From a virus, in UHGV virus genome UHGV-0041314: a stretch of DNA of 64,000 bases. One strand, written 5' to 3'. Each line of letters opens with the position of its first letter. Positions within the stretch are counted from its first letter, which is position 1. The position numbers were made by a program, and so were the translations under genes. Below, piece after piece: positions 43,430 through 48,640 of the stretch. Under the pieces are notes generated by a model that was not told the origin of the DNA, made no database searches, and was given only the letters and a program-made list of their open reading frames with translations.

Positions 43430-43506
43430 CTCTGTTTAGCTCAGCTTGGTAGAGCGTTCCGTTTGGGGCGGTAAGGCCGGAGGTTCAAGTCCTCCAACAG
43501 AGACCA
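43430..43506 (+). tRNA. tRNA-Pro (anticodon UGG)
   Basis: cloverleaf by eye: acceptor CTCTGTT/AACAGAG, anticodon loop TTTGGGG, T-arm GGAGG-TTCAAGT-CCTCC, CCA encoded. Confidence 0.65.
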
Positions 43507-43513
43507 AATTAAT

Positions 43514-43591
43514 GTTCCAGTAGACAAAATGGTAAAGTCACCACTCTTTCAAAGTGGATATTTGAGGGTTCAAATCCCTTCTGGAACGCCA
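43514..43591 (+). tRNA. tRNA-Glu (anticodon UUC)
   Basis: acceptor GTTCCAG/CTGGAAC, anticodon arm CCACT-CTTTCAA-AGTGG, CCA encoded. Confidence 0.7.
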
Positions 43592-43596
43592 GTTTT

Positions 43597-43672
43597 GACA
43601 GAAGACCAATTGCAGCAAACTTAATCTTATTCATCTGAAGGTAAATCGGACAAAGAAGAGATTTGGTCTGGT
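43597..43672 (+). ncRNA. structured RNA element, bulged-helix family member 1
   Basis: CAGAAGACCAA...TTGGTCTGG long-range pairing with 2-nt bulge enclosing ~55 nt A/U-rich sequence containing CAGCAA. Confidence 0.3.
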
Positions 43673-43682
43673 CATTAAGAAT

Positions 43683-43759
43683 TGCGGGTATAGAGAAAGG
43701 GCGTCTCACATGTCTCATTAGCATGGTATCGGCAGGTTCGACTCCTGCACCCGCCTCCA
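43683..43759 (+). tRNA. tRNA with CAU anticodon (Met or Ile2), irregular 5' half
   Basis: T-arm GCAGG-TTCGACT-CCTGC and CCA clear; anticodon arm CATGT-CTCATTA-GCATG; 1-72 mismatch; extra nt before D-stem. Confidence 0.45.
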
Positions 43760-43763
43760 AATT

Positions 43764-43832
43764 TACAGAAGACCGTTTACAGCAATATTTATTAAATTTT
43801 TAGCGGAAAAATTGAAAGATACGGTCTGGTAA
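43764..43832 (+). ncRNA. structured RNA element, bulged-helix family member 2
   Basis: CAGAAGACCGT...ACGGTCTGG pairing; conserved TTTACAGCAA after 5' strand. Confidence 0.3.
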
Positions 43833-43842
43833 TACTAAACAT

Positions 43843-43919
43843 GGTTAGGAAGCACATAAGGTATGTGCGGTCGCCTGTTAAGCGAATGGCACAGGGTTCG
43901 AATCCCTGACTAACCGCCA
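43843..43919 (+). tRNA. tRNA-Asn (anticodon GUU)
   Basis: acceptor GGTTAGG/ACTAACC, anticodon loop CTGTTAA, T-arm CAGGG-TTCGAAT-CCCTG, CCA. Confidence 0.7.
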
Positions 43920-43988
43920 AATTTAGGAGAGAAGCGATTGCTCACCGATTTGTAAGGTGCAAGTCCTTAGCCTGAATAGAAATTAAAT

Positions 43989-44076
43989 GTGTCGTTATCC
44001 CGTAGATGGTAGCGGTGGGGACTGTAAATCCCTTGTCATTGAGACTCGGTAGGTTCGACTCCTACACGGCACACCA
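43989..44076 (+). tRNA. tRNA-Tyr (anticodon GUA), long variable arm
   Basis: 88 nt; anticodon arm GGGGA-CTGTAAA-TCCCT; variable arm GTC/GAC; T-arm GTAGG-TTCGACT-CCTAC; CCA. Confidence 0.65.
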
Positions 44077-44082
44077 AATAAA

Positions 44083-44160
44083 GGTTATGTAGTTTAATCT
44101 GGTTAAAATACTCCCCTGTCACGGGAGATGATGAGGGTTCGAATCCCTTCGTAACCGCCA
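44083..44160 (+). tRNA. tRNA-Asp (anticodon GUC)
   Basis: acceptor GGTTATG/CGTAACC, anticodon arm CTCCC-CTGTCAC-GGGAG, CCA. Confidence 0.75.
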
Positions 44161-44245
44161 AATTATAATAAGTATTTCAAAATGATGTTTTGAGAGGGCT
44201 ATTTAGCCCCTCCCTTAAAGAGTTCTTACGAGTATTCTTTAAAGG

Positions 44246-44322
44246 AGCAGAAGACCAAATTCAGCAAGTTACTTAAAATTTCAAGCCAATTTAATTTTGA
44301 AAAATTTAAAACTTGGTCTGGC
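44246..44322 (+). ncRNA. structured RNA element, bulged-helix family member 3
   Basis: CAGAAGACCAA...TTGGTCTGG pairing; AATTCAGCAA after 5' strand. Confidence 0.3.
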
Positions 44323-44332
44323 TCAACAAATT

Positions 44333-44468
44333 TACAGAAGACCGTTTACAGCAAACTTTAAACAATCTATTTCTCCGGTAAAGAAAAGGCGAAGGTTCGA
44401 TTCCTTCACTCGGCAGATGTCGAGTTGGTGTAATGGTAGCACTTAAGATGATAAACAACGGTCTGGTA
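44333..44468 (+). ncRNA. structured RNA with circularly permuted tRNA-like module inside a long bulged helix (Y-RNA/YrlA-like candidate)
   Basis: outer helix CAGAAGACCG (44335-44344) / CGGTCTGG (44459-44466); inside, T-arm GAAGG-TTCGATT-CCTTC then acceptor 3' strand ACTCGGC, 4-nt turn, acceptor 5' strand GTCGAGT and D-arm-like TGGTGTAATGGTAGCAC. Confidence 0.4.
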
Positions 44469-44475
44469 ATTATCT

Positions 44476-44604
44476 TTGTAGATAAGTTATTAAGCTTACC
44501 TGTGAGTATGCGACCACAAAGGGTGAAAGGGTAAATTCTAGATTTAAACCCAACAAGGCACATCGCTACAGACCTTAAGCAAGTCTGGGTAGCTTATCTA
44601 CAAA
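44476..44604 (+). ncRNA. structured RNA candidate enclosed by a 10-bp long-range helix
   Basis: TGTAGATAAG (44477-44486) pairs with CTTATCTACA (44595-44604); internal CAGACC...GTCTGG hairpin. Confidence 0.25.
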
Positions 44605-44615
44605 GATGATTTAAT

Positions 44616-44691
44616 GGAAGTGTAGCAGAATGGTGATGCGGCAGACTTTTAATCTGACAGGCGATGGGTTCGAATCCCTCCACTTCTACCA
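44616..44691 (+). tRNA. tRNA-Lys (anticodon UUU)
   Basis: acceptor GGAAGTG/CACTTCT, anticodon loop CTTTTAA; weak T-stem; CCA. Confidence 0.55.
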
Positions 44692-44695
44692 ATAT

Positions 44696-44772
44696 GGTTC
44701 AGTCGCAGATAAGGTAATGCAGGGGTTTCATAAGCCCTATGAATGTGGGTTCGATTCCCATCTGAACCTCCA
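44696..44772 (+). tRNA. tRNA with CAU anticodon (Met/fMet/Ile2)
   Basis: acceptor GGTTCAG/CTGAACC perfect; anticodon arm GGGGT-TTCATAA-GCCCT (G-C rich); T-arm GTGGG-TTCGATT-CCCAT; CCA. Confidence 0.65.
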
Positions 44773-44773
44773 A

Positions 44774-44849
44774 GCTGGTATAGTTAAGAAGGTTATAACA
44801 CTCCCCTGATAAGGGAACATCGGTGGTTCGATTCCACCTACCAGTACCA
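44774..44849 (+). tRNA. tRNA-Ile (anticodon GAU)
   Basis: anticodon loop CTGATAA; T-arm GGTGG-TTCGATT-CCACC; CCA. Confidence 0.7.
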
Positions 44850-44864
44850 ATTTCAATAAAGTTG

Positions 44865-44893
44865 TTGACATTGAGATGTGACGACTTTATAGT
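44865..44893 (+). promoter_or_regulatory. sigma70-like promoter inside the tRNA cluster
   Basis: TTGACA - 17 bp - TATAGT. Confidence 0.55.
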
Positions 44894-45187
44894 AACTGAA
44901 AATGATTCAGTATATGTATAATTCAAACACCAATACATGAGCGTTAGACGTAACACAATGTGGGGAAATTTGTTGTACATATTCTGAATAGTTTTCGTTG
45001 CGTAGCGTCTATTTTGCAAATTTAAAATAAATGCAAACGACAATGTTTTTCTGGCAGTAGCTTGATAGGCTAAACACCAGTGAGGTCTTCCAATCCCTCA
45101 TCAAAGAATTTGGCGTACTAGCCCACGGTATGATTAATAAGGTGGGCATCTTTAAGGGCTTTCTAAGAGAGTCTTTAAAGATAATTA

Positions 45188-45269
45188 CGGGGCGTATCTC
45201 AGCGGTCTTCTAAACCGCCGTTAACCGAGTAAGTGGAGTATGCGGGTTCGAGTCCTGCCGCCTCGACCA
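45188..45269 (+). tRNA. tRNA-like gene with irregular 5' half; anticodon undetermined (possibly UCU)
   Basis: canonical T-arm GCGGG-TTCGAGT-CCTGC, acceptor 3' strand and CCA; D/anticodon region does not fold as a standard cloverleaf by eye. Confidence 0.35.
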
Positions 45270-45412
45270 ATTTAGTTAGCAGATTGCTTAGACGACCTTA
45301 TCGGGTCTCCGTGTAAGGAGGTGGTCTGTATCTCATGTTTTCCAGAACATGTAAATAATCTGAGAAGGGGCTTTACAGTGTTGCGAAAATACGGTAAGCT
45401 TCGAATTACAGT

Positions 45413-45495
45413 ATGGGACGATGTTAAGACTCTAAGGCATGAGCAACGGCCTCCAAAACCGTTTCAAAGGGGTTCAACTCCTCCGTCCCATGCCA
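45413..45495 (+). tRNA. tRNA-Trp-like (anticodon CCA) with ~7 extra nt between acceptor and D-arm
   Basis: 3' two-thirds canonical (ACGGC-CTCCAAA-ACCGT, T-arm, GTCCCAT, CCA); 5' acceptor strand ATGGGAC displaced upstream. Confidence 0.4.
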
Positions 45496-45508
45496 AAGTC
45501 TTATTAGG

Positions 45509-45596
45509 GGTAGGTAGCGGCTAATGGTAGCCAAACTGTCTTGAAAACAGTTGCCACTGTAGAGATACGGTGAGGGTTCGACTCCTTTACTTACCG
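45509..45596 (+). tRNA. tRNA-Ser (anticodon UGA), long variable arm
   Basis: anticodon arm ACTGT-CTTGAAA-ACAGT; T-arm GAGGG-TTCGACT-CCTTT; 3' end encodes CC only. Confidence 0.6.
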
Positions 45597-45754
45597 CCTA
45601 ATAAGATTTACACCGTCCATGCTTGCTCGCATTTTCGGTTTATCCCTCGTGTATTGGTTGTACACACTGATAAAGCACCTAGTAGGTGTCACGGAGAAGA
45701 GATAATATCAAGCTCTCCAAAGGTTCTAGTCACCGGATTAAACAAGACTATGCA

Positions 45755-45776
45755 AAGACCTAAATAGGTCTTTTTA
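45755..45776 (+). terminator. rho-independent terminator inside tRNA cluster
   Basis: AAGACC-TAAATA-GGTCTT then TTTT. Confidence 0.5.
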
Positions 45777-45854
45777 GAGGGCTTCTAAGGTTATTACAGC
45801 TTGTTGTGGAACCTTGTTGCTTAGGTTCTTAGAAGTTCTCTAAAAAGATTTAAT

Positions 45855-45932
45855 GGGAGATTGACGGTAATTGGTAAACCTACCATCCTTAGAAGTTGGT
45901 GTTTGAGGGTTCGAATCCCTTGTCTCCTACCA
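45855..45932 (+). tRNA. tRNA-Leu-like (anticodon UAG), short variable loop
   Basis: acceptor GGGAGAT/GTCTCCT, anticodon loop CTTAGAA, T-arm GAGGG-TTCGAAT-CCCTT, CCA; D region irregular. Confidence 0.45.
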
Positions 45933-45939
45933 AATTAAT

Positions 45940-46015
45940 GCAGGTGTAGCAAAATGGTTATGCGGCTGACTCTTAATCAGTAAGACGATGGGTTCAATTC
46001 CCTCCACCTGTACCA
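45940..46015 (+). tRNA. tRNA-Lys (anticodon CUU)
   Basis: acceptor GCAGGTG/CACCTGT, anticodon arm GCTGA-CTCTTAA-TCAGT, CCA. Confidence 0.55.
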
Positions 46016-46021
46016 AACATT

Positions 46022-46097
46022 GGGGTCATAGTTTATATGGTTAAAATTCGAGTTTTGCAAACTTGGGAACTGAGTTCAACTCTCAGTGACTCCACCA
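46022..46097 (+). tRNA. tRNA-Ala (anticodon UGC)
   Basis: acceptor GGGGTCA/TGACTCC, anticodon loop TTTGCAA, T-arm CTGAG-TTCAACT-CTCAG, CCA. Confidence 0.7.
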
Positions 46098-46103
46098 ATT
46101 AGT

Positions 46104-46178
46104 GCATCCATAGTTTAAACGGGAAAATTACAGTCTTCCAAACTGAGGTTGAGGGTTCGATTCCCTCTGGATGCTCCA
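46104..46178 (+). tRNA. tRNA-Gly (anticodon UCC)
   Basis: acceptor GCATCCA/TGGATGC perfect, anticodon loop CTTCCAA, T-arm GAGGG-TTCGATT-CCCTC, CCA. Confidence 0.75.
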
Positions 46179-46185
46179 AATTAAT

Positions 46186-46262
46186 GCTGCTTTCGTATAA
46201 TTGGCTATTACACATCCCTTGTAAGGATGGAAATGCAGGTTCGAGTCCTGTGAGCAGCACCA
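46186..46262 (+). tRNA. tRNA-Thr (anticodon UGU)
   Basis: anticodon arm CATCC-CTTGTAA-GGATG, T-arm GCAGG-TTCGAGT-CCTGT, CCA. Confidence 0.75.
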
Positions 46263-46263
46263 A

Positions 46264-46356
46264 TTCAGAGGTCAAGTGAAAGACCGCTTTGAGTCAACTG
46301 AAGACCGTAACAAATCCCACGGAGTTGAGTTAGCGGCACAACTTCAGACCTCTTTC
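46264..46356 (+). ncRNA. structured non-tRNA RNA between tRNA-Thr and tRNA-Val
   Basis: nested helices AGAGGTC/GACCTCT, CTGAAG/CTTCAG, TCAACT/AGTTGA; contains CTGAAGACCGTAACAA resembling the CAGAAGACC motif. Confidence 0.3.
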
Positions 46357-46358
46357 AT

Positions 46359-46433
46359 GCTCGCTTAGTTTATATGGTAAAACATCACCCTTACAAGATG
46401 AAGAAAAAGGTTCAAGTCCTTTAGTGAGTACCA
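46359..46433 (+). tRNA. tRNA-Val (anticodon UAC)
   Basis: acceptor GCTCGCT/AGTGAGT, anticodon loop CTTACAA, T-arm AAAGG-TTCAAGT-CCTTT, CCA. Confidence 0.65.
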
Positions 46434-46434
46434 T

Positions 46435-46512
46435 GTTCCAGTATCCCAATTGGCAGAGGATGCAAGCTCAAACCTTGTATTAGTGACGGTTCGAATCCGT
46501 CTTGGAACACCA
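46435..46512 (+). tRNA. tRNA-Leu-like (anticodon CAA), short variable loop
   Basis: anticodon arm GCAAG-CTCAAAC-CTTGT, T-arm GACGG-TTCGAAT-CCGTC, CCA; weak D-stem. Confidence 0.5.
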
Positions 46513-46626
46513 ATTTTAGGAGAACACTATGAGTAATAAATCAATTGCAAAAAAGTTTATAGCGTCATTCAAAAACAGGCGTAAAAACAACTCTTGTGAA
46601 AAACTGTATGGTGTTCTTGTAGGTAA

Positions 46627-46702
46627 GCAGGATTAGTTCAAATGGATAGAGCAACAGTCTACGAAGCTGTTAATAGGGGTTCGAATCCCTTATCCTGCAC
46701 CA
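46627..46702 (+). tRNA. tRNA-Arg (anticodon ACG)
   Basis: acceptor GCAGGAT/ATCCTGC perfect, D-arm GTTC/GAGC, anticodon arm ACAGT-CTACGAA-GCTGT, CCA. Confidence 0.75.
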
Positions 46703-46721
46703 ATTTAAAGAGGCTATTTAG

Positions 46722-47279
46722 ATGAGATATTTGAAGTATGCTTCATGGATTGTCTTAGCTTTGTTAGAGCCATTTGCAGCAATCTTAGCAGTTATCTTAG
46801 CACCTTTCGTAGTCCCATTCTACAGTGAGAAGAAAGGACACTTACCTTTCGGCTTCAGATGGATGGAGACATATGACAACCCAATTGATGGTGATAAAGG
46901 GCATGTCGAACGATGGGCTAAGATTAGAAAGATTGGCAAGCTTGGTGTCTATATGCAGAGAGTCGGTTGGCTCTGGAGAAACAAAGCTTATAACTTCTCT
47001 TACCATGTATTAGGAAGAGATGTAAAAGATGTTACTAAGTGGAAAGGTAATATCAACGTAAGTTCTAACCCTGAAGATAATCAGACAGGTTATCTCCTAA
47101 TGTGGAACAGTAATGCTTGGGGATTATTCGCTTTTATCCCATCAATTAAAGTCTTTGGTAAACAATTCTACTGGAGAATTTATGTTGGATGGAAGCTAAA
47201 AAGTGTTGTCCCAGAAGAAAGAGCATTCTCAAGGGAAAGAGTTATGTTGGCATTCTTTATTCATCCACTAAGAAAGTAA
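46722..47279 (+). CDS. hypothetical membrane protein embedded in tRNA cluster
   Basis: AAAGAGG RBS; N-terminal hydrophobic segment; between tRNA-Arg and tRNA-Gln. Confidence 0.45.
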   Translation: MRYLKYASWIVLALLEPFAAILAVILAPFVVPFYSEKKGHLPFGFRWMETYDNPIDGDKGHVERWAKIRKIGKLGVYMQRVGWLWRNKAYNFSYHVLGRDVKDVTKWKGNINVSSNPEDNQTGYLLMWNSNAWGLFAFIPSIKVFGKQFYWRIYVGWKLKSVVPEERAFSRERVMLAFFIHPLRK

Positions 47280-47287
47280 AGATTTAA

Positions 47288-47363
47288 AGGGGATTAGTTT
47301 ACAAGGTTAAAACCTCGGTCTTTGAAATCGAAGAAGTTGGTTCAATTCCAACATCCCCCGCCA
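47288..47363 (+). tRNA. tRNA-Gln (anticodon UUG)
   Basis: anticodon arm TCGGT-CTTTGAA-ATCGA, T-arm GTTGG-TTCAATT-CCAAC, CCA; A1-C72 mismatch. Confidence 0.65.
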
Positions 47364-47365
47364 AT

Positions 47366-47444
47366 GCTCCATTACTCCAATTGGTAGAGAGGCCAGACTT
47401 AAAATCTGTGTTATGTATCGGTTCGAATCCGATATGGAGTACCA
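47366..47444 (+). tRNA. tRNA-Leu-like (anticodon UAA), short variable loop
   Basis: anticodon loop CTTAAAA, T-arm ATCGG-TTCGAAT-CCGAT, CCA. Confidence 0.5.
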
Positions 47445-47449
47445 AATTT

Positions 47450-47525
47450 AGCGGTATAGCATAACTGGCAATGCAGCAGTCTCTGAAGCTGTCTTATTAA
47501 GGTTCAAATCCTTATGCCGCTGCCA
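47450..47525 (+). tRNA. tRNA-Gln (anticodon CUG)
   Basis: standard numbering fits: D-arm GCAT/ATGC, anticodon arm GCAGT-CTCTGAA-GCTGT, T-arm TAAGG-TTCAAAT-CCTTA, CCA. Confidence 0.7.
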
Positions 47526-47556
47526 CTTCTAAGGGTTCTTACGAGAGTCCTTAAAT

Positions 47557-47632
47557 GTGGCCTTATCATAAATGGTAATGACCCATGCTGTGAACATGGT
47601 CTATACGGGTTCAAATCCCGTAGGTCACCCCA
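47557..47632 (+). tRNA. tRNA-His (anticodon GUG)
   Basis: D-arm TCAT/ATGA, anticodon arm CCATG-CTGTGAA-CATGG, T-arm ACGGG-TTCAAAT-CCCGT, CCA. Confidence 0.75.
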
Positions 47633-47638
47633 ATTTAT

Positions 47639-47714
47639 AGTCCAAGTAGCTTATATGGTTAAAGCGCGTGTCTGAAAAACATGAGAAGAGGGTTCAAATC
47701 CCACTGGACTACCA
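47639..47714 (+). tRNA. tRNA-Phe (anticodon GAA)
   Basis: anticodon arm CGTGT-CTGAAAA-ACATG, D-arm GCTT/AAGC, CCA; acceptor/T-stem register ambiguous by 1 nt. Confidence 0.6.
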
Positions 47715-47730
47715 ATTCCAAAGGTGCTTA

Positions 47731-48465
47731 ATGAAAGAGATGACAGAACAAGGTAAGGAGATTTTTAATCTCTTAAAAACCGGTAGAGGGTTTTCTAATC
47801 CCCTTATTACTGGTGCAGCAGTTCTCGGTGGAACCGTAGCTGCCTCTACATCACTTGTAAGCTCTATTAGCTCTGTAACAGACCCTACAATAAAAGATAA
47901 ACTTGTTGCTGCTGGACTTACAACAGTTCTGCTTAACAGCTTTACAACGAGCCTGACAAGCACTACATCAACTACTAAGACACTGACAGATTACGGTCAA
48001 AAGTCCATTGATGAGTTTTCCTCACGTATGCAGGTAGCAAAAGGCTATTCTAATGTTATGGGTGCAGCAGGTGAACAAGTTGGCTGTACACCATTTAGTG
48101 GTATTATGGGTGTTGCTACAGAGTATGGTCAAAAAGCTATGGATACGATTAACAGTGCACTAGACGGTGTTAATGATGTATTAAGTGACTTACAGGATGC
48201 TATTGATAAAGGTCTTGATACTATTTCTGATTTAGCTAACCAAGCTGTTAGTAAGATTAATGAAGGTATCTCGAAGATTACAGCTTATGCAGATGAAGTT
48301 GTGCAGATGATTGAAGAAGAAGCTGCCCTTATTGCAGAGTACCTTAAAACGAATATCAATGGGTTCTTAGCAGGTATCTTACCAGACTGGTTCGACGATG
48401 CTTGTAAAACTGGTGTAATTGACACTATTGCAACACCAGAAATGAAGAACGCATTACAGAAATAA
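47731..48465 (+). CDS. hypothetical Ser/Thr-rich protein embedded in tRNA cluster
   Basis: track ORF 47668 starts at GTG inside tRNA-Phe; ATG 47731 with AAGGTG RBS lies after the tRNA. Confidence 0.4.
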   Translation: MKEMTEQGKEIFNLLKTGRGFSNPLITGAAVLGGTVAASTSLVSSISSVTDPTIKDKLVAAGLTTVLLNSFTTSLTSTTSTTKTLTDYGQKSIDEFSSRMQVAKGYSNVMGAAGEQVGCTPFSGIMGVATEYGQKAMDTINSALDGVNDVLSDLQDAIDKGLDTISDLANQAVSKINEGISKITAYADEVVQMIEEEAALIAEYLKTNINGFLAGILPDWFDDACKTGVIDTIATPEMKNALQK

Positions 48466-48467
48466 AT

Positions 48468-48560
48468 GGAAGATTAACCCTAAAAGGTAAGGGAGCAGTT
48501 TGCTAAACTGCCAGTAGCTGAGAAATCGGTGTACCAGTTCAAGTCTGGTATCTTCCTCCA
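48468..48560 (+). tRNA. tRNA-Ser (anticodon GCU), long variable arm
   Basis: 93 nt; acceptor GGAAGAT/ATCTTCC perfect, anticodon arm GCAGT-TTGCTAA-ACTGC, T-arm ACCAG-TTCAAGT-CTGGT, CCA. Confidence 0.7.
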
Positions 48561-48564
48561 ATTT

Positions 48565-48640
48565 GAATCCGTGACAGAAATGGCTATGTGCCTGTCTGCA
48601 AAACAGGTTTATAAGGGTTCGAGTCCCTTCGGATTCTCCA
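48565..48640 (+). tRNA. tRNA-Cys (anticodon GCA)
   Basis: standard numbering fits: acceptor GAATCCG/CGGATTC, anticodon arm CCTGT-CTGCAAA-ACAGG, T-arm AAGGG-TTCGAGT-CCCTT, CCA. Confidence 0.8.

Follow-up and report, generated by a model that had tools for sequence, protein, structure and literature searches.

For D-armless mitochondrial transfer RNAs (tRNAs) for serine (mammalian AGY, nematode) an extension of the anticodon stem by connector bases has been proposed, which is referred to as "structural compensation", and the red alga Cyanidioschyzon merolae harbours circularly permuted tRNA genes. D-armless tRNAs are documented (PMC7609411, PMC9427863), while tRNA-Sec and allo-tRNAs adopt 8/5, 8/4 or 9/3 layouts, one allo-tRNA type featuring an extra loop between acceptor and D arm (PMC7609411); the same review of non-canonical tRNAs makes no mention of phages. 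Permuted two-piece genes are known for transfer-messenger RNA (tmRNA), and phages encode mini-tmRNAs of about 65 nt, as exemplified by phage DS6A, whose mini-tmRNA is devoid of a coding sequence (PMC11915505). Here we analyse two tRNA-like genes, element 1 (45188-45269) and element 2 (45413-45495), of UHGV virus genome UHGV-0041314. The stretch of 64,000 nucleotides under study (the window) is that of a Felix O1-like phage (Felixounavirus) with a tRNA cluster.

With a probability of roughly 0.65 we consider both elements to be working elongator tRNAs with non-canonical cores. Element 1 is most likely a tRNA-Arg(UCU) belonging to a widespread, phage-specific and arginine-only structural class, while element 2 is most likely a tRNA-Trp(CCA) of normal strand order which carries an invariant 7-nt insertion in front of a 3-bp D stem as well as a widened anticodon loop. 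On balance, we also lean towards the more far-reaching proposal that element 1 represents an undescribed, ancient, phage-specific class of arginine tRNAs with a topologically rearranged core, which would be charged by arginyl-tRNA synthetase (ArgRS) and used by the ribosome, element 2 being a second, independent exception. No prior description of the arginine architecture was found in the literature searched, most subscription-journal papers being outside its reach, and priority is unproven.

Among known architectures, the one closest to element 1 is found in D-armless mitochondrial tRNAs whose anticodon-side arm is extended. Like these tRNAs, element 1 possesses no D hairpin, forms a three-way junction and gains length in its anticodon-side arm through pairing of the 5' connector with the variable region, whereby the length of the arm is maintained, a resemblance which is architectural only and implies no common descent. 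Unlike them, the element 1 family occurs in phages of bacteria, is specific for arginine, retains a full T arm and a D-loop-like GG segment, and is strongly conserved in sequence, whereas mitochondrial tRNAs are eroded. With canonical tRNA-Arg(UCU), such as the Bas63/JohannRWettstein allele or E. coli argU, element 1 shares the anticodon loop CUUCUAA (and, in the case of Bas63, the genomic slot), the 7-bp acceptor, the 5-bp T arm with UUCGA, A or G at position 73, the encoded CCA, and a GGA motif resembling G18-G19-A20 in the D loop of tRNA-Arg. In contrast to canonical tRNA-Arg, it lacks a local D hairpin, has a three-way instead of a four-way junction, and contains a conserved 8-nt internal loop as well as a D-loop-like segment directly 5' of the T arm. 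In permuted tRNA and tmRNA genes the whole gene is rearranged at its termini and the mature RNA is canonical or two-piece, whereas the termini of element 1 are normal and its rearrangement, being internal, would persist in the mature RNA. The rearranged segment order of such genes is literally shared by a further element of the cluster, located at 44370-44442, and conceptually by the core of element 1.

Results and Discussion

Architecture of element 1

Inspection base by base confirms that both elements possess a T arm, complementary 7-nt acceptor strands and an encoded CCA, just as a sequence-only reading of the window had described. In both, the T loop conforms to UUCRANY, and the anticodon loop carries U33 and a purine at position 37. 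The same reading had placed the irregularity of element 1 in its 5' half, where the region in front of the anticodon arm appeared 6-7 nt too long or did not give a normal D arm, and had found no confidently assignable anticodon. The stretch between acceptor and anticodon arm amounts to 7 nt and is thus too short, the surplus of 23 nt is situated 3' of the anticodon arm, and the latter is complete, with TCT as anticodon (Table 1). Instead of a local D hairpin two bases after the acceptor, there is a helix of the pattern CNC:GNG (the D' helix of Table 1) whose strands flank the anticodon arm and enclose it entirely, a single A separating the CUC strand from the anticodon arm. As this helix spans the anticodon arm, the RNA forms a three-way junction. 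With the anticodon arm placed between the two D-stem strands, anticodon stem and short helix join into one long interrupted arm. Its approximately ten layers (3-4 bp, internal loop, 5 bp) would match the 4+1+5 stack of D and anticodon stem in a normal tRNA. The possibility of a class II tRNA possessing a long variable arm was considered and rejected, as GNG, located in the surplus 23 nt, forms no local hairpin but covaries with the CNC strand on the 5' side.

The core of element 1 can tentatively be described as that of a normal tRNA with segment 10-21 transposed so as to follow segment 22-48, an arrangement from which the normal L-shape appears rebuildable. In such a model, the connector UAU would keep U8 and A9, and the internal loop CGUUAACC would adopt a variable-loop-like function. 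The near-invariant sequence UAAYUGGAGUAU would read as A14, R15, Y16, U17, G18, G19, A20, ..., A21 (D-loop positions 14-21), so that UAAGUGGAGUAU of the window copy would carry GG and a following A equivalent to G18, G19 and A20 in the D loop of tRNA-Arg. The U following the A21-like base could correspond to position 48, the partner of position 15. Judged from its sequence, the D-loop-like stretch A-A-Y-U-G-G-A...A-U could supply both the elbow contacts, made by GG to the T loop, and the A20 which is read by ArgRS.

Covariation within the element 1 family

Homologues of element 1 showing 81-90% identity are found in phages unrelated to one another, namely Kolesnikvirus, T5-like Demerecviridae of Klebsiella and Serratia, Asteriusvirus jumbo phages, Justusliebigvirus, Mydovirus, one Vibrio phage and Streptomyces Karimacvirus. 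Enlarged via pattern scans of viral contigs and via a family covariance model, the family comprises 68 distinct sequences. In their alignment 98.4% of the cells are occupied by standard pairs and 18 of the 20 pairs exhibit compensatory changes. None of 500 shuffles reaches the observed values, and slid partners pair at merely 34-47%. For the families of both elements the covariation exceeds all 500 shuffles as well as all slid-partner controls and is hence far beyond chance.

All seven acceptor pairs of the element 1 family show compensatory changes, with 99.6% of the cells paired. The decisive CNC:GNG helix is paired in 99.5% and all three of its pairs covary. Its middle pair (12:42) is U-A in 42 sequences, A-U in 13, G-C in 12 and C-G in one, its inner pair (13:41) C-G in 55, G-C in seven and U-A in five; a fourth pair is often possible.

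These data bear on the possibility that the elements are decaying pseudogenes, i.e. tRNA genes damaged by insertion or rearrangement. Some homologues are indeed labelled "tRNA-Pseudo", "tRNA-OTHER" or "Undet" in GenBank, and the announcement of phage Mushroom mentions two pseudo tRNA genes (PMC4392139). Yet, near-perfect pairing has been preserved through hundreds of compensatory substitutions in 68 (element 1) and 10 (element 2) sequences, core motifs and anticodons are invariant, and the element 1 family has been kept across phages of Enterobacteria, Vibrio and Streptomyces, which renders decay highly improbable. The sequence-only reading had offered functional non-canonical tRNAs, insertion-bearing pseudogenes and tRNA-derived regulatory RNAs as three options, of which the comparative data favour the first, while covariation in every helix and the conserved anticodons exclude the second.

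Anticodon and arginine identity

The anticodon of element 1 is UCU in 65 of the 68 family members, with CCU, UCG and ACG occurring once each, and hence invariably specifies arginine. In 55 sequences the anticodon loop reads CTTCTAA, the remaining 13 harbouring UCU (10), CCU, UCG and ACG. CCA is encoded in 48 of the 68 members. In E. coli, the identity set for arginine consists of C35, U36 or G36, A20 within the D loop, and A or G at position 73. C35 is present in all 68 family members, position 36 is U or G in every one of them, and A or G73 is found in 63. The GGA motif of the D-loop-like segment is invariant, and its A would match A20 in three dimensions.

A pattern for the CUC/GAG subfamily, which is narrow, retrieved a single contig of a metagenome-assembled genome from the genomes of 185,579 bacterial and archaeal species (one genome each). 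The element 1 family is therefore essentially viral. In phages other than the one analysed here, element 1 is located inside tRNA arrays, a few bases away from the neighbouring tRNAs. It is usually the sole UCU gene of the array, which may comprise 22-24 tRNAs including Arg(acg) and is then devoid of a canonical Arg(tct).

In GenBank, homologues of element 1 mostly bear no label or are otherwise given as tRNA-OTHER, tRNA-Undet or pseudo. The homologue of Streptomyces phage Yaboi (L011 595-673) is mislabelled as tRNA-Val(aac). At several Vequintavirinae-type loci ARAGORN predicts "tRNA-???" genes with 2-nt anticodons. Such calls, together with the inconsistent labels, suggest that phage arrays may hold more odd tRNAs.

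Architecture of element 2

For element 2, the sequence-only reading proves correct in identifying a tRNA-Trp (CCA) with an insertion, and here its estimate of a region 6-7 nt too long also holds. A local 3-bp D hairpin is present but begins 9-10 nt after the acceptor, compared with two in a normal tRNA, as the linker AUGUUAAGA exceeds the usual two-base connector by about 7 nt. A single C separates the D arm from the anticodon arm, and the variable region UCAAA is short (4-5 nt). The pentanucleotide GUUAA is common to this linker and to the internal loop of element 1, and both elements contain a module of the form GUUAA-NN-(3-nt D-stem strand)-UAA...GG.

In the ten distinct homologues all pairs are formed (100%), and eight of the 20 pairs show compensatory changes, among them the middle pair of the D stem, four pairs of the anticodon stem and one of the T stem. 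Thus, four of the five anticodon-stem pairs are compensatory, and the loop conforms to C-YUCCAAM-M in all members. The E. coli identity set for tryptophan comprises the anticodon CCA, G73 and A1-U72. Both CCA and G73 occur in all ten sequences, while pair 1-72 is A-U in six, G-U in two and G-C in two.

G8 can pair with C 45484, which gives rise to an 8/4 layout, i.e. a 4-bp T stem next to an 8-bp acceptor. Alternatively, a 7/5 layout results, in which the T stem consists of 4 bp and an A-C mismatch. The two are indistinguishable because neither G8 nor C72 varies. Drawn with an 8-bp acceptor, a 4-bp T stem and extra bases in front of the D arm, element 2 resembles tRNA-Sec and allo-tRNAs. Unlike tRNA-Sec, it has no long variable arm, its D stem measures 3 instead of 6 bp, and CCA, G73 and A1-U72 are of the tryptophan type. 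The combination of a 12- or 13-bp acceptor/T domain (8/5, 9/4 or 8/4) with a long variable arm and a 6-bp D stem, as expected of tRNA-Sec or allo-tRNAs, is thus not present in element 2: the extra pair of the 8/4 layout never varies, the variable region comprises 4-5 nt, and the Rfam tRNA-Sec score of 23 bits is far below the gathering score of 47.

Homologues of element 2 were found in Ounavirinae only, namely in Felixounavirus, Mooglevirus, Suspvirus, Yersinia phage P778 and Pectobacterium phage Arno18. A loose pattern scan (GATGTTAAGAN{18,30}TCCAA) returned about 120 chance matches and, after filtering, no new homologue. The family appears confined to Ounavirinae.

Table 1. Coordinates of the two elements, their parts and further features. 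Positions refer to the window unless a locus is named.
Feature	Position	Strand	Remark
Element 1, non-canonical tRNA-Arg(UCU), 82 nt including encoded CCA (most likely assignment)	45188-45269	+	Family covariance model R1, 102.9 bits
Element 1, acceptor 5' strand CGGGGCG	45188-45194	+	Pairs with CGCCTCG 45259-45265; 7 bp, one G-U
Element 1, connector UAU (U8/A9-like, putative)	45195-45197	+	Invariant in alignment
Element 1, D' helix 5' strand CUC	45198-45200	+	Pairs with GAG 45227-45229; encloses anticodon arm
Element 1, anticodon arm GCGGU-CUUCUAA-ACCGC	45202-45218	+	5/5 stem pairs covary; anticodon UCU 45209-45211
Element 1, internal loop CGUUAACC	45219-45226	+	Conserved 8 nt; family consensus C-R-U-Y-A-A-N-N
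Element 1, D' helix 3' strand GAG	45227-45229	+	Covariation alignment
Element 1, D-loop-like segment UAAGUGGAGUAU	45230-45241	+	Near-invariant as UAAYUGGAGUAU
Element 1, T arm GCGGG-UUCGAGU-CCUGC	45242-45258	+	5-bp stem, canonical
Element 1, acceptor 3' strand CGCCUCG, discriminator A, CCA	45259-45269	+	Checked base by base
Element 2, non-canonical tRNA-Trp(CCA), 83 nt including encoded CCA (most likely assignment)	45413-45495	+	Ten distinct homologues
Element 2, acceptor 5' strand AUGGGAC and G8	45413-45420	+	Pairs with GUCCCAU
Element 2, linker AUGUUAAGA	45421-45429	+	Invariant in 10/10, from Felixounavirus to Pectobacterium and Yersinia phages
Element 2, D arm CUC-UAAGGCAU-GAG	45430-45443	+	3-bp stem; middle pair U-A in 5, A-U in 5
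Element 2, anticodon arm AACGG-CCUCCAAAA-CCGUU	45445-45463	+	5-bp stem, 9-nt loop, or 7-nt loop closed by a C31-A39 mismatch; CCA 45453-45455
Element 2, T arm GGGG-UUCAACU-CCUC	45469-45483	+	Outer pair switches from G-C to U-A
Element 2, acceptor 3' strand GUCCCAU, discriminator G, CCA	45485-45495	+	Checked base by base
Candidate sigma-70 promoter TTGACA-17-TATAGT	44865-44893	+	11/12 hexamer positions match
HNH-type open reading frames	L001 1919-2311; L004 691-1200; L009 684-1247; L002 1565-1969		L001: Felix O1 ORF100
tmRNA-like mRNA domain (tag RNA)	44895-45187	+	Downstream of the candidate promoter
Tag-like open reading frame	45033-45065	+	GCA AAC GAC AAT GTT TTT CTG GCA GTA GCT TGA = ANDNVFLAVA*
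Circularly permuted tRNA-like element	44370-44442	+	Gap between tRNA-Asp and tRNA-Lys
Inverted repeat, 22 nt	44468-44489 / 44590-44611		91% complementary
Invariant block	44270-44350		Felixounavirus, Mooglevirus, Suspvirus
Spacer between elements 1 and 2, 143 nt	45270-45412	+	Hairpin at about 45290-45335
Long hairpin directly 5' of element 1	45148-45182	+	Near-perfect
Long hairpin directly 5' of tRNA-Leu (45855)	45769-45848	+	Near-perfect

Decoding capacity of the tRNA cluster

The tRNA cluster extends from 43430 to 48640 on the + strand and, according to ARAGORN, contains 25 tRNAs covering 19 amino acids. Tryptophan is the only amino acid without a tRNA predicted by this program, and the sole arginine tRNA bears the anticodon ACG. 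AGA, a rare codon in E. coli, makes up 38% of the arginine codons in 56 open reading frames (ORFs) of the window, corresponding to 15.1 per 1000 codons. Trp and UCU, which are otherwise the only gaps in the decoding capacity of the phage tRNAs, are covered by the two elements.

Neither element was called by ARAGORN in the window, and the program likewise misses the homologues of both, with the exception of one locus (L189) where a 94-nt Arg(tct) call overlaps an element 1 homologue. With the Rfam tRNA model (RF00005) element 1 obtains 31.7 bits (gathering score 29), and this only in an alignment which deletes the D arm and inserts 20 nt into the variable region after the anticodon arm. Element 2 reached the gathering score of no Rfam model, its top match being tRNA-Sec with 23 versus 47 bits. 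Neither element is thus folded by the standard tools as an ordinary cloverleaf; such a fold would, according to the sequence-only reading, have refuted its proposal. The folding energies of the single sequences (z-scores of 0.04 and -1.39) are uninformative, as is usual for tRNAs.

Ordinary alleles at orthologous loci

Within the region 44850-45860, 266 phage records match the window at 80-99% identity. The comparison of orthologous loci that the sequence-only reading had recommended reveals that ordinary tRNA-Arg(UCU) and tRNA-Trp(CCA) genes alternate with the elements at the same slots. In Bas63 the slot of element 1, bordered by the same flanks, is occupied by an ordinary 77-nt tRNA-Arg(UCU), and in D1-2 the slot of element 2 holds another tRNA-Trp(CCA). 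Altogether, element 1 is present in about 117 of about 266 Felixounavirus records.

This alternation of canonical and non-canonical alleles within Felixounavirus would also be expected if the elements were working tRNAs that arose as cleavage-immune alleles travelling with free-standing, selfish HNH homing endonuclease genes. Such an origin, in which the HNH enzymes would cut the ordinary tRNA-Arg and tRNA-Trp genes of competing phages, is compatible with a role as working tRNAs. Consistent with this idea, HNH-type ORFs from at least two unrelated families start at most about 10 nt 3' of the element 1 homologue in three unrelated lineages (Felix O1-type, Klebsiella T5-like and Serratia Kamaji), an ORF of a jumbo phage begins 115 nt from the homologue, and an HNH ORF lies 3' of the alternative Trp gene of D1-2. 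An ORF of this type was, however, detected with four queries in only about eight of 58 distinct contexts, none adjoins either element in the window, and homing endonuclease genes are common across phage tRNA clusters anyway. Moreover, the stems have fully diverged while the core is fixed, which points to an old constraint at the RNA level rather than to recent spread. We therefore hold an HNH-driven origin to be possible, albeit doubtful. The recurrent HNH neighbours make up a candidate system in which selfish endonucleases would shape essential RNA genes.

Predicted function in translation

If both elements act as elongator tRNAs, they would be transcribed together with the tRNA cluster. The candidate promoter (Table 1) belongs to a block conserved in Felix O1, Bas63 and D1-2 and constitutes the nearest predicted upstream start for the element 1 transcript, for which it is presumably used. 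No terminator-like site was detected in the region 44600-45900. The two RNAs, with CCA already encoded, would be excised by RNase P and 3' exonucleases, whereupon host ArgRS would charge element 1 and host tryptophanyl-tRNA synthetase element 2. On the ribosome, element 1 would decode AGA and AGG and element 2 UGG.

As an alternative, the elements may be tRNA mimics acting outside translation, e.g. as decoys or sponges for tRNA-targeting defence nucleases or modification enzymes, as processing punctuation of the cluster transcript, or as regulators. Both cores are non-canonical, the loop flanks of the element 2 anticodon vary (CUCCAAA versus UUCCAAC) while CCA is kept, the cluster additionally contains the permuted element, which is unable to be an ordinary tRNA, and phage tRNAs are known to interact with host anticodon nucleases (PMC10264068). 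A decoy for a single nuclease, however, needs neither four different arginine anticodons nor a preserved ArgRS-style GGA motif in the D loop. Mimicry also hardly accounts for the one-for-one replacement of ordinary tRNA-Arg and tRNA-Trp genes in sister phages or for the fact that, without the elements, the phage set has no means of decoding Trp and UCU. Finally, the intact acceptor/T domain and the encoded CCA required for charging are both present. We thus regard mimicry as unlikely and prefer the assignment as working tRNAs.

Several observations weigh against this assignment. Both elements are rejected by ARAGORN, and one of them only just passes in Rfam. According to a 2024 paper, all known bacterial tRNAs are canonical (PMC11551756), and that ArgRS, EF-Tu and the ribosome would accept a core built as a three-way junction is an assumption of the predicted function. 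The mapping of this core onto canonical tertiary pairs is not amenable to covariation because the bases involved are invariant. A literature search found no RNA-seq of these phages. At two loci (L032 and L040) another UCU tRNA adjoins element 1, which is thus not always the sole UCU decoder. In element 2, position 31-39 is always mismatched (C-A or C-C), rendering the anticodon loop effectively 9 nt long, with the inner seven nucleotides CUCCAAA being canonical, and its two most distant relatives display a bulge in the acceptor stem.

Charging and use of the elements would mean that bacterial translation tolerates a tRNA core wired unlike the cloverleaf, and a natural exception would exist to the rule that tRNAs in bacterial translation are canonical cloverleaves. 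E. coli had to be evolved by engineers to accept non-cloverleaf tRNAs (PMC11551756). The element 1 family would provide a natural scaffold for the design of orthogonal tRNAs and a means to test the tertiary contacts required by ArgRS, EF-Tu, RNase P and the ribosome. Furthermore, inventories of phage tRNAs come out too low and some records are mislabelled, which biases studies on the reasons for phage tRNA carriage. For instance, 26 tRNAs for 19 amino acids are reported for the relative Sf14 (PMC12482277), whose locus carries an unannotated element 2 homologue.

The upstream tag RNA

Immediately upstream of element 1 lies a tmRNA-like mRNA domain with a tag-like ORF (Table 1), for which no tRNA-like domain could be recognised. 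On the 3' side of the tag an H-type pseudoknot is followed by a hairpin with the conserved loop GGURUGAUUAAUAA. In-frame homologues of the tag occur in the lambdoid phage HK633 (ANEEMYLAVA*) and in Kuttervirus phage 38 (ANDNTFLAVA*), that of HK633 being flanked by PR' and the holin gene. Both phages conserve the tag as well as the pseudoknot and the hairpin, with compensatory changes, the pseudoknot switching from CCAAU/AUUUGG to CCAGU/AUCUGG and CCGAU/AUUCGG. Matches to the tag region exist in G7C-like, Klebsiella and Erwinia phages as well. The region yields only weak matches to the Rfam tmRNA models and is not recognised by ARAGORN.

The presence of this RNA raises the question of whether element 1 constitutes the tRNA-like domain of a tmRNA-type system which includes the tag RNA. 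Element 1 shares acceptor, T arm and ACCA with the tRNA-like domain of tmRNA and mini-tmRNA. The ends of element 1 (E = 9e-7) and, weakly, the tag region produce matches to the Rfam tmRNA model, the window copy possesses G3-U70 and A73, and genome announcements give "ssrA" as an ARAGORN result for Felix O1 and Moogle. Unlike the tmRNA domain, however, element 1 contains a full anticodon arm specific for arginine, while the tag-like ORF belongs to a separate upstream segment. Though present in the window copy, G-U is found at pair 3-70 in only six of the 68 family members, compared with GC in 29, CG in 15, AU in 10 and UA in seven. Element 1 and the tag RNA are also distributed independently: homologues of the former occur in tRNA arrays without an upstream tag RNA, and Bas63 keeps the tag RNA with an ordinary tRNA-Arg in the slot. 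As G3-U70 is not conserved, the anticodon arm is complete and the two RNAs do not travel together, the tmRNA-domain idea is refuted, and we regard it as extremely improbable.

No tRNA-like partner of the tag RNA was recognised in HK633 and Kuttervirus phage 38 by ARAGORN, Rfam or a search for strand complements. In Kuttervirus phage 38 (L187 ~937-965), some 200 nt 3' of the tag-like RNA, a T arm is followed by ACGGCUCCA (GCUCCA-like), in resemblance to the 3' end of a tmRNA. A matching 5' strand was found for this piece only about 870 nt upstream.

Further RNA features of the cluster

The permuted tRNA-like element (Table 1) begins with an anticodon-like hairpin UUUCU-CCGGUAA-AGAAA (GGU), followed by AGGC, a T arm GAAGG-UUCGAUU-CCUUC and the acceptor 3' strand ACUCGGC. 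Then come the loop A-GAU, the acceptor 5' strand GUCGAGU, UG, and a D arm GUGU-AAUGGUA-GCAC. Upon rotation it corresponds to a perfect 71-nt tRNA-Thr(GGU) with the break between positions 26 and 27. Its acceptor strands covary over three lineages (ACUCGGC/GUCGAGU, ACACGUU/GGCGUGU and, in Moogle, ACCCUUC-GCCA-AACA-GAAGGGU). In Moogle GCCA is encoded within the loop of the permuted element, and the anticodon-like hairpin is not kept. The GenBank record of REP6 has a 131-nt "tRNA-Thr" annotated at this position. Cleavage by RNase P may give rise to a two-piece tRNA-like RNA, and the element may be the "ssrA" of the Felix O1 and Moogle announcements. An RNAduplex calculation of the permuted-element region against the tag RNA produced output which is meaningless at such lengths. 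The 22-nt inverted repeat brackets around 100 nt between the permuted element and tRNA-Lys, suggesting a larger structured RNA in this gap. A block preceding the permuted element is invariant across three genera (Table 1).

The spacer between elements 1 and 2 is conserved like the tRNAs in Felix O1, Bas63 and D1-2. Changes in Bas63 and Felix O1 keep the pairing of its hairpin (...GGGUCUCCGUGUAAGGAGGUGGUC...), and the spacer could represent another small stable RNA or a processing signal. The two near-perfect long hairpins, one in front of element 1 and one in front of tRNA-Leu, have the motif AGGGCUU(U)CUAAG in common and are possibly processing or RNase III sites. The latter hairpin produces a spurious match to a plant miRNA model of Rfam.

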